DNA of 64,000 nt from positions 208,616-272,615 of the forward strand of contig CAVZJB010000009.1 in NCBI GenBank assembly GCA_963775425.1. The letters are read 5' to 3'. This DNA comes from an uncultured delta proteobacterium. GTDB taxonomy: Bacteria > Myxococcota > UBA727 > VGSZ01. This document shows, piece after piece, positions 33,331 through 33,435 of this stretch; the first letter of the stretch is position 1, and the number at the start of each line of letters is the position of its first letter. Under the pieces are notes generated by a model, which was given only the letters and a program-made list of their open reading frames with translations, did not search any database and was not told the DNA's origin. The position numbers were made by a program, and so were the translations under genes.

Positions 33331-33435
33331 CCGGTCGCTGATCAAAGCGCGGCCGCTCCCTCCGGTCGCTGATCAAGCGCGGCCGCTCCCTCCGGTCGCT
33401 GATCAAGCGCGGCCGCTCCCTCCGGTCGCTGATCT
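33331..33435. repeat. tandem array (3.5 copies) of a 30-nt unit CCGGTCGCTGATCAAGCGCGGCCGCTCCCT
   Basis: Read directly. Copy 1 has a one-base insertion. Lies in the intergenic region upstream of the 33475 gene. Contains GCGGCCGC and TGATCA palindromes. Confidence 0.9.

Follow-up and report, generated by a model that had tools for sequence, protein, structure and literature searches.

A hairpin-prone 30-nt repeat at two neighbouring intergenic sites in an uncultivated Myxococcota lineage: likeness to REP/REPIN elements and to MIRU minisatellites

Among the described systems, those closest to the repeat reported here are the REP and REPIN elements of Gammaproteobacteria and the MIRUs of mycobacteria. 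A 5' tetranucleotide of the GTAG type is known from the REPs of E. coli, where BIMEs are characterized by an alternating REP orientation and by defined linker motifs. The small ORFs of MIRUs are reportedly coupled to the flanking genes. In the REPIN model, REPs are short imperfect palindromes, their inverted doublets form hairpins, their singlets are decaying remnants, and tandem arrangements are occasionally found (PMC3337134). MIRUs, for their part, are tandem repeats of 46-101 bp present at 41 loci (PMC3914561). The repeat described below was found at two sites within a 64,000-nt stretch of DNA with a GC content of 71.5%, hereafter referred to as the window. Its features, at site 1 (the first three lines) and at site 2 (the last two), are as follows.

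33331..33435, + strand: head-to-tail array of the 30-nt unit CCGGTCGCTGATCAAGCGCGGCCGCTCCCT, 3.4-3.5 copies (Tandem Repeats Finder score 199, 98% matches)
33306..33323, - strand: inverted partial copy of the repeat core (left arm), GCGGCCGCGCTTCGATCA, which is the reverse complement of TGATCgAAGCGCGGCCGC
33305..33357, no strand assigned: 53-nt hairpin in which the left arm pairs, across a 15-nt spacer, with the first repeat unit (REPIN-like inverted doublet)
39356..39389, + strand: second-site copy GATCAAGCGCGGCCGCTCCgTCCGGTCGCcGATC, which matches the unit at 32/34 positions in a GATC-to-GATC reading
39390..39408, + strand: decayed partial second unit adjoining this copy (local alignment with a 2-nt indel and 13/17 matches)

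A sequence-only reading of the window had reported a 30-nt tandem array of 3.5 copies at 33331-33435. Tandem Repeats Finder bore this out, with a call at 33331-33434 of period 30, 3.4 copies and consensus CCGGTCGCTGATCAAGCGCGGCCGCTCCCT. In the register 33345-33434, three 30-nt copies were 100% identical; the first unit of the array has one extra A, and units 2 and 3 are identical. The sequence CCGGTCGCTGATC occurs four times in the array, in which the units abut head-to-tail at an exact spacing of 30 nt with no linker, the sole inverted arm preceding them. The unit measures 30 nt, or 36 nt when TGATCA is counted at both ends. From one end to the other, it is made up of TGATCA, AGC, a stem GCGGCCG, a 7-nt loop CTCCCTC, a stem CGGTCGC and TGATCA. 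Each unit is predicted to be a weak imperfect palindrome with a 7-bp stem, which the pairing of the flanking TGATCA sites closes (DNA fold of -9.5 kcal/mol, z -2.2; 4/200 shuffles as stable). Two dyad-symmetric motifs are present per unit, TGATCA and GCGGCCGC, which are the palindromes that the earlier reading had pointed out.

The left arm, 18 nt in length, is 94% complementary to positions 33339-33356, from which it is separated by the 15-nt spacer. The resulting 53-nt hairpin dominates the predicted fold of the site-1 region: for the RNA of positions 33290-33450 (MFE -86.1 kcal/mol, z -3.7), its stem was present in both the MFE and the centroid structure. Folded as DNA, positions 33300-33362 reached -23.7 kcal/mol (z -4.0) on the + strand and -26.8 kcal/mol (z -5.4) on the - strand, with 0/200 shuffles as stable. 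One REPIN-type inverted doublet is present (33306-33356), and site 2 is a singlet. Structure prediction of the copies, which had been proposed as a check of the earlier reading, yielded a strong hairpin at site 1 but no special fold stability for the site-2 copy alone (z +1.1 to +2.2; as DNA, -7.8 kcal/mol, z +1.2).

At site 2, the same reading had seen a single diverged copy at 39356-39390. The copy exists, but it is not single: local alignment of site 2 with the array extended over 52 nt, or about 1.7 units, which corresponds to a decayed array. The left arm and its 53-nt hairpin, the weak palindrome of the unit and the additional part of site 2 had all been missed. Within the window, blastn matched site 1 to site 2 with an E-value of about 6e-10 to 2e-9. 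The 30-mer with up to 3 mismatches was expected 0.00 times in shuffled sequence, and the 19-mer core with up to 3 mismatches was seen 3 times versus 0.27 expected. A 36-mer scan of both strands with up to 12 mismatches revealed no third site in the 64-kb window. When the flanking genes are taken as reference, the site-1 array is oriented the opposite way to the site-2 copy; the left arm of site 1 is oriented as site 2 is. Among the 34 intergenic segments of the window, two carry the repeat, which is the sole genuine one common to different segments; the other 12-mers common to intergenic segments proved to be GC-rich, low-complexity, coding-like matches.

Compared with REP/REPIN elements, the repeat has in common a short GC-rich extragenic unit (an imperfect palindrome that is weak in the array), the location between operon genes, an inverted doublet with a long hairpin, a decaying-looking singlet and an occasional tandem arrangement. 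It differs in its dimensions, with 18-nt arms and a 15-nt spacer versus about 89 nt for the GI REPIN of SBW25 (PMC3337134), and in its tandem unit, which is a half-doublet in direct orientation. Moreover, no RAYT is present in the window, the repeat has no GTAG-like 5' motif, and only two sites were found in 64 kb. The term REP-like, used in the sequence-only reading, fits the form of the element (extragenic, both dispersed and tandem, with a weakly palindromic unit and an inverted doublet hairpin), but no transposase accompanies it among the 52 ORFs scanned in the window. Persistence in related lineages, as in REP/REPIN families, was not seen in 693 kb of related loci, a small sample. With the BIMEs of E. 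coli, the locus shares the clustering of REP-like units in one intergenic region; however, all units are head-to-tail and without linker, save the single left arm, and the term BIME-like finds no support, since their orientation does not alternate.

The likeness to MIRUs lies in a short unit repeated in direct tandem (3.5 and about 1.7 units at the two sites known), in the placement of these arrays at dispersed intergenic sites and in the high-GC genome. In addition, site 1 separates genes that almost adjoin each other in a related contig, where co-transcription is probable, and copy-number instability is likely. Nevertheless, the unit is shorter (30 nt versus 46-101 bp), there are two sites versus 41, small ORFs coupled to the flanking genes are not evident, and MIRUs themselves have no hairpin doublet, unlike site 1. 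Plasmid iterons and the sopC locus of F, with its tandem 43-bp repeats, also consist of direct tandem units, each with a 7-bp inverted repeat here and a short inverted repeat in sopC; by contrast, the present repeat is located on a 394-kb contig with no rep or par genes nearby, and it is not conserved in relatives. A CRISPR array was rejected, as the repeat units abut without spacers. A search of positions 32500-40500 against Rfam 15 gave only two chance-level matches (E 0.57 and 0.72), far below the gathering scores. Identification of the repeat as a CRISPR, an iteron or partition site, or a known RNA family is excluded or unsupported.

The two sites are flanked by the following genes.

30798-33203, + strand: bacterial Major-Vault-Protein-like gene, 801 aa (Pfam MVP_shoulder 1.4e-15, Vault_3 2.7e-08)
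33475-34620: Pro-rich membrane-anchored protein gene, whose extent is backed by full-length homologues
36291-39281, - strand: uvrA, with its start at 39281 (a 100% identical UvrA, P0025, is encoded on an NCBI/ENA contig of 394,389 bp)
39416-42070, - strand: 884-aa gene, with its stop at 39416

Both sites were located between confirmed gene ends, in agreement with the earlier claim that the repeat is confined to intergenic DNA, before the Pro-rich gene and between uvrA and the next operon. Site 1 falls within the 271-nt gap that separates the vault-like stop (33203) from the Pro-rich start (33475), the repeat being 40-145 nt before the Pro-rich ATG. The 884-aa gene has its stop 26 nt away from the site-2 copy, which itself precedes the uvrA start codon by 75-108 nt. 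Close to this copy, on the uvrA side, is a box, CTGAACACGTGTTGCG (39316-39331, - strand), found upstream of uvrA and only once in the window. The vault-like gene is located downstream of MlaE/ABC/MlaD-like genes in the window and in two related contigs (L047 and L096), and metagenomes yielded 48 related loci.

Scans for the sigma-70 promoter consensus and for the T-run terminator consensus gave no match at either repeat site. Since the genome uses T-run terminators and the repeat hairpin is without a T-run, terminator activity of this hairpin is doubtful. A canonical intrinsic terminator, with a 13-bp stem followed by TTTTTT, was observed at 8386-8357 (- strand). No regulator, replication or partition genes were found adjoining the repeat sites. 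The search for a Y1 (RAYT) transposase, which the sequence-only reading had suggested, was negative: a rough gene map of the 64-kb window comprised about 51 ORFs, and none of the 52 ORFs scanned against Pfam contained a transposase or integrase domain, including Y1_Tnp (RAYT/IS200, PF01797).

L047, a JGI metagenome contig, was the only syntenic relative compared, with identities of 84% for uvrA, 74% for the vault-like protein and 63% for the Pro-rich protein. In this contig, only about 21 nt lie between the vault-like stop and the GTG with which the Pro-rich gene begins (TAG tccgttcgctatgctccgggg GTG), versus 271 nt in the window. The difference corresponds to one stretch.

33204..33454, + strand: intergenic stretch of about 250 nt, absent from L047 (gap-affine alignment with two gaps, 217 + 33 = 250 nt)

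In the affine-gap alignment with L047, this extra DNA follows the stop codon and precedes the conserved CGCTAT..GGGG.(A/G)TG that is found just before the start. The hairpin and the array are thus in DNA that L047 does not have. Because of the near-contiguous arrangement in L047 and the identical tandem units of the array, we favour a recent gain in the lineage of the window over a loss in L047, although one comparator fits either polarity. The loci of four distant homologues of the Pro-rich gene (L043-L046) have different upstream neighbours and were uninformative for site 1.

Upstream of uvrA, a box of the form CTGAACAC[C/G]TGTTGCGTA was found about 45-50 nt before the start in the window and in three relatives whose uvrA is 83% (L096), 81% (L098) and 82% (L099) identical to that of the window; it is located at about 9952-9972, 3974-3994 and 2506-2526, respectively. 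This SOS-like box resembles the LexA (SOS) box of Myxococcus and deltaproteobacteria. The repeat was absent upstream of the box in all three relatives, where unrelated sequence was found. At the spot where the window has the site-2 copy, L096 exhibits a (CTCCCG)n hexamer array (9858-9918); this spot seems prone to acquiring simple repeats. Both sites of the repeat are thus in stretches that close relatives lack, which points to recently gained, non-conserved DNA and not to a conserved regulatory site. More broadly, 54 related loci with a total of 693 kb contained no copy of the 34-mer, and their best match, with 10/34 mismatches, was at the chance level. Of this DNA, 74 kb belonged to the four nearest relatives, whose uvrA is 81-84% identical; in this small sample without a copy, about two copies would be expected at the density of the window (P about 0.1 for none). 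This DNA comparison left out two closer uvrA relatives, P0026 (89% identical) and P0027 (84%).

Copies were then sought in public collections. The exact 19-mer core gave 42 single matches among 185,579 species-representative genomes, all in unrelated phyla and with random flanks; since only 5-14 of 35 flanking positions were identical, these were rejected as chance matches. The pattern GATCAAGCGCGGCCGCTCCNTCC, with 22 specified bases, gave 0 matches in JGI metagenomes, as did the exact 19-mer core in viral contigs and the 271-nt intergenic region in phage records. With the same 271-nt query, the plasmid search yielded one weak match, on pRZP2 of Rhodococcus sp. ZPP (78.5% over 62 nt, E 1e-4), at 526147-526211 (1501-1565 of the retrieved locus, L100), in a stretch without a listed gene. 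This match is not a copy of the repeat: no repeat structure is present there, and it is probably due to chance or composition. As peptides, the array's four open frames gave no match at E-values up to 10 among 5.8 billion protein clusters, and only 11 candidates with common words were seen. The absence of translated arrays among predicted proteins speaks weakly against many arrays elsewhere. These searches show that the repeat is not a widespread conserved element; as the source genome is evidently not exposed in the public collections, their silence says little about copies in that genome.

Overall, the reading that we prefer, and to which we give about half of our confidence, is that of a lineage-specific, non-coding, hairpin-prone small interspersed repeat that expanded locally and has an incidental function at most. 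It resembles REP/REPIN elements in form, by its weakly palindromic unit, hairpin doublet and decaying singlet, and MIRU minisatellites in behaviour, by its direct tandem copies at dispersed intergenic sites; membership in a REP/RAYT family is unproven. The term interspersed family rests on n = 2 sites, 6 kb apart. At site 1, an inverted doublet with 18-nt arms and a 15-nt spacer would have formed the long hairpin, and the right half of this doublet would then have been amplified head-to-tail to about 3.5 copies, most likely by replication slippage or by unequal recombination between the CCGGTCGCTGATC direct repeats. Two other short-period arrays are present in intergenic DNA of the window (6387-6526 and 7906-8099), which suggests that slippage-prone DNA is common here. 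Site 2 would represent an array of about 1.7 units in which decay has begun, and the repeat may have reached this second site through the action in trans of a transposase, or by ectopic recombination. The hairpins of site 1, which now stand between two genes that almost adjoin in L047, might reduce read-through or shield the vault-like mRNA at its 3' end; any function of the repeat is probably incidental. As seen in the window, the repeat amounts to a short and unremarkable stretch of repetitive DNA that was gained recently.

A possible but less probable explanation is a one-off local event, in which site 1 acquired its hairpin and slippage array in place, and about 1.7 units were then copied once, by ectopic duplication or gene conversion, over 6 kb to site 2, with no other copies in the genome. 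This would account for the count of just two sites in the 64-kb window, no more than 6 kb apart, for the random-flank matches that alone came from the 185,579 genomes and the absence of matches in JGI metagenomes and viral contigs, and for the related loci without a copy and the lack of any predicted protein with a translated array. Moreover, the 17-nt spacer between the two genes in L047, TCCGTTCGCTATGCTCC, agrees at 13/17 positions with the last partial unit, TCCGGTCGCTGATCTCC, with an estimated chance probability of about 0.03 when placement is allowed for; this hints that the unit may derive in part from the ancestral spacer. However, a 52-nt tract shared by unrelated intergenic regions without flanking homology is unlike simple recombination, and the two sites seem to have independent histories, site 2 looking the older and the more decayed. 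The silence of the public collections, in which the source genome is evidently not exposed, also adds little to this explanation.

We consider it improbable, though worth stating, that the two sites are the visible part of an uncatalogued mobile hairpin-repeat family in this uncultivated Myxococcota lineage. Such a family would have spread as REPIN-like doublets, with half-doublets amplified head-to-tail as in a hybrid of REPIN and minisatellite, and would be mobilised by a transposase other than a classical RAYT. If the repeat were a genome-wide family, it would represent a REP/MIRU-type element in a phylum where our literature search found none described, it could serve as a strain-typing (VNTR) marker, and site 1 would be a natural example of two formerly contiguous genes, vault-protein-like and Pro-rich, that a hairpin array has come to separate by insertion.

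Somewhat less likely still is the proposal of the sequence-only reading, namely that the copies belong to a genuine REP/REPIN population, which a RAYT (Y1 HUH transposase) from another part of the genome would mobilise. The unit is indeed an extragenic imperfect palindrome, the inverted doublet hairpin and decaying singlet match the published description of REPINs (PMC3337134), and a density of 2/34 intergenic segments would fit a family of hundreds. Against this stand the lack of a Y1_Tnp or any other transposase in the 52 ORFs of the window, the tandem unit, which is a head-to-tail half-doublet instead of whole REPINs or alternating REPs, the lack of a GTAG-type 5' tetranucleotide in the repeat sequence, and the 74 kb of the nearest relatives, where about two copies were expected and none was seen (P about 0.1). 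Furthermore, REP-associated RAYT groups have been characterised mainly in genera such as Escherichia and Pseudomonas, and our literature search found no report of REP/RAYT systems in myxobacteria.

The least probable of these explanations, and in our opinion a very unlikely one, is a cis-regulatory array (operator-, iteron- or centromere-like) in which a dimeric protein would bind the TGATCA and/or GCGGCCGC dyads and control the Pro-rich gene and uvrA. Both sites are upstream of a gene start, 40-145 nt from the Pro-rich ATG and 75-108 nt from the uvrA ATG, the two dyad-symmetric motifs recur in each unit at a spacing of 30 bp, about three helical turns, and TGATCA is over-represented in the window (12 occurrences versus 3.4 expected). 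Nonetheless, neither site is conserved in relatives that keep the flanking genes and the SOS-like box of uvrA, which makes a functional cis element unlikely. The 32/34 identity between the sites and the identical tandem units indicate recent duplication and not selection on a degenerate operator, the repeat has opposite orientations relative to the downstream gene at the two sites, and no regulator, replication or partition gene is adjacent. Two further candidates were rejected: the 6-kb segment between the direct copies as an att-bounded island, since L047 keeps the gene order without the site-1 repeat, and a MITE with TIR and TSD at site 1, for which the matches were of only 7-8 nt (CGACGGG/CCCGTCG; GGCACGCT twice), not above background at this GC content.

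Several other features of the window were observed. The tetranucleotide GATC was counted 321 times, versus about 166 expected from base composition, and a gene for a DNA methyltransferase of the N6_N4_Mtase family is located at 12444-13355 (- strand). Adjacent genes with YscJ/FliF and FliG (middle and C-terminal) domains, at 9368-11427 (+ strand), encode flagellar or type-III-secretion basal-body components; the nearest relatives of the genome that bears them carry the label Myxococcota/Deltaproteobacteria. The gene at 48289-54183 (- strand), which contains long coding tandem repeats of 129-nt and 399-nt periods, encodes a repetitive protein of 1964 aa with repeats of the DUF11, bacterial cadherin-like and TSP3 types.

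Finally, a 144-nt element was found twice in inverted orientation, at 6178-6321 and 8128-8271, its copies being 90% complementary and 1806 nt apart. Each copy has a different short-period tandem array within 30-65 nt (6387-6526 and 7906-8099), consisting of GCGCGCCTCCTTG x10.8 and AAGGCAAG x24.5, respectively, and neither period is a multiple of 3. Together, the copies and their arrays bracket a gene with FG-GAP repeats, and a hairpin with ..GCTTGACC after it lies at the end of each arm. This inverted pair could be a duplicated regulatory or terminator module, or could correspond to the ends of a mobile or invertible cassette.
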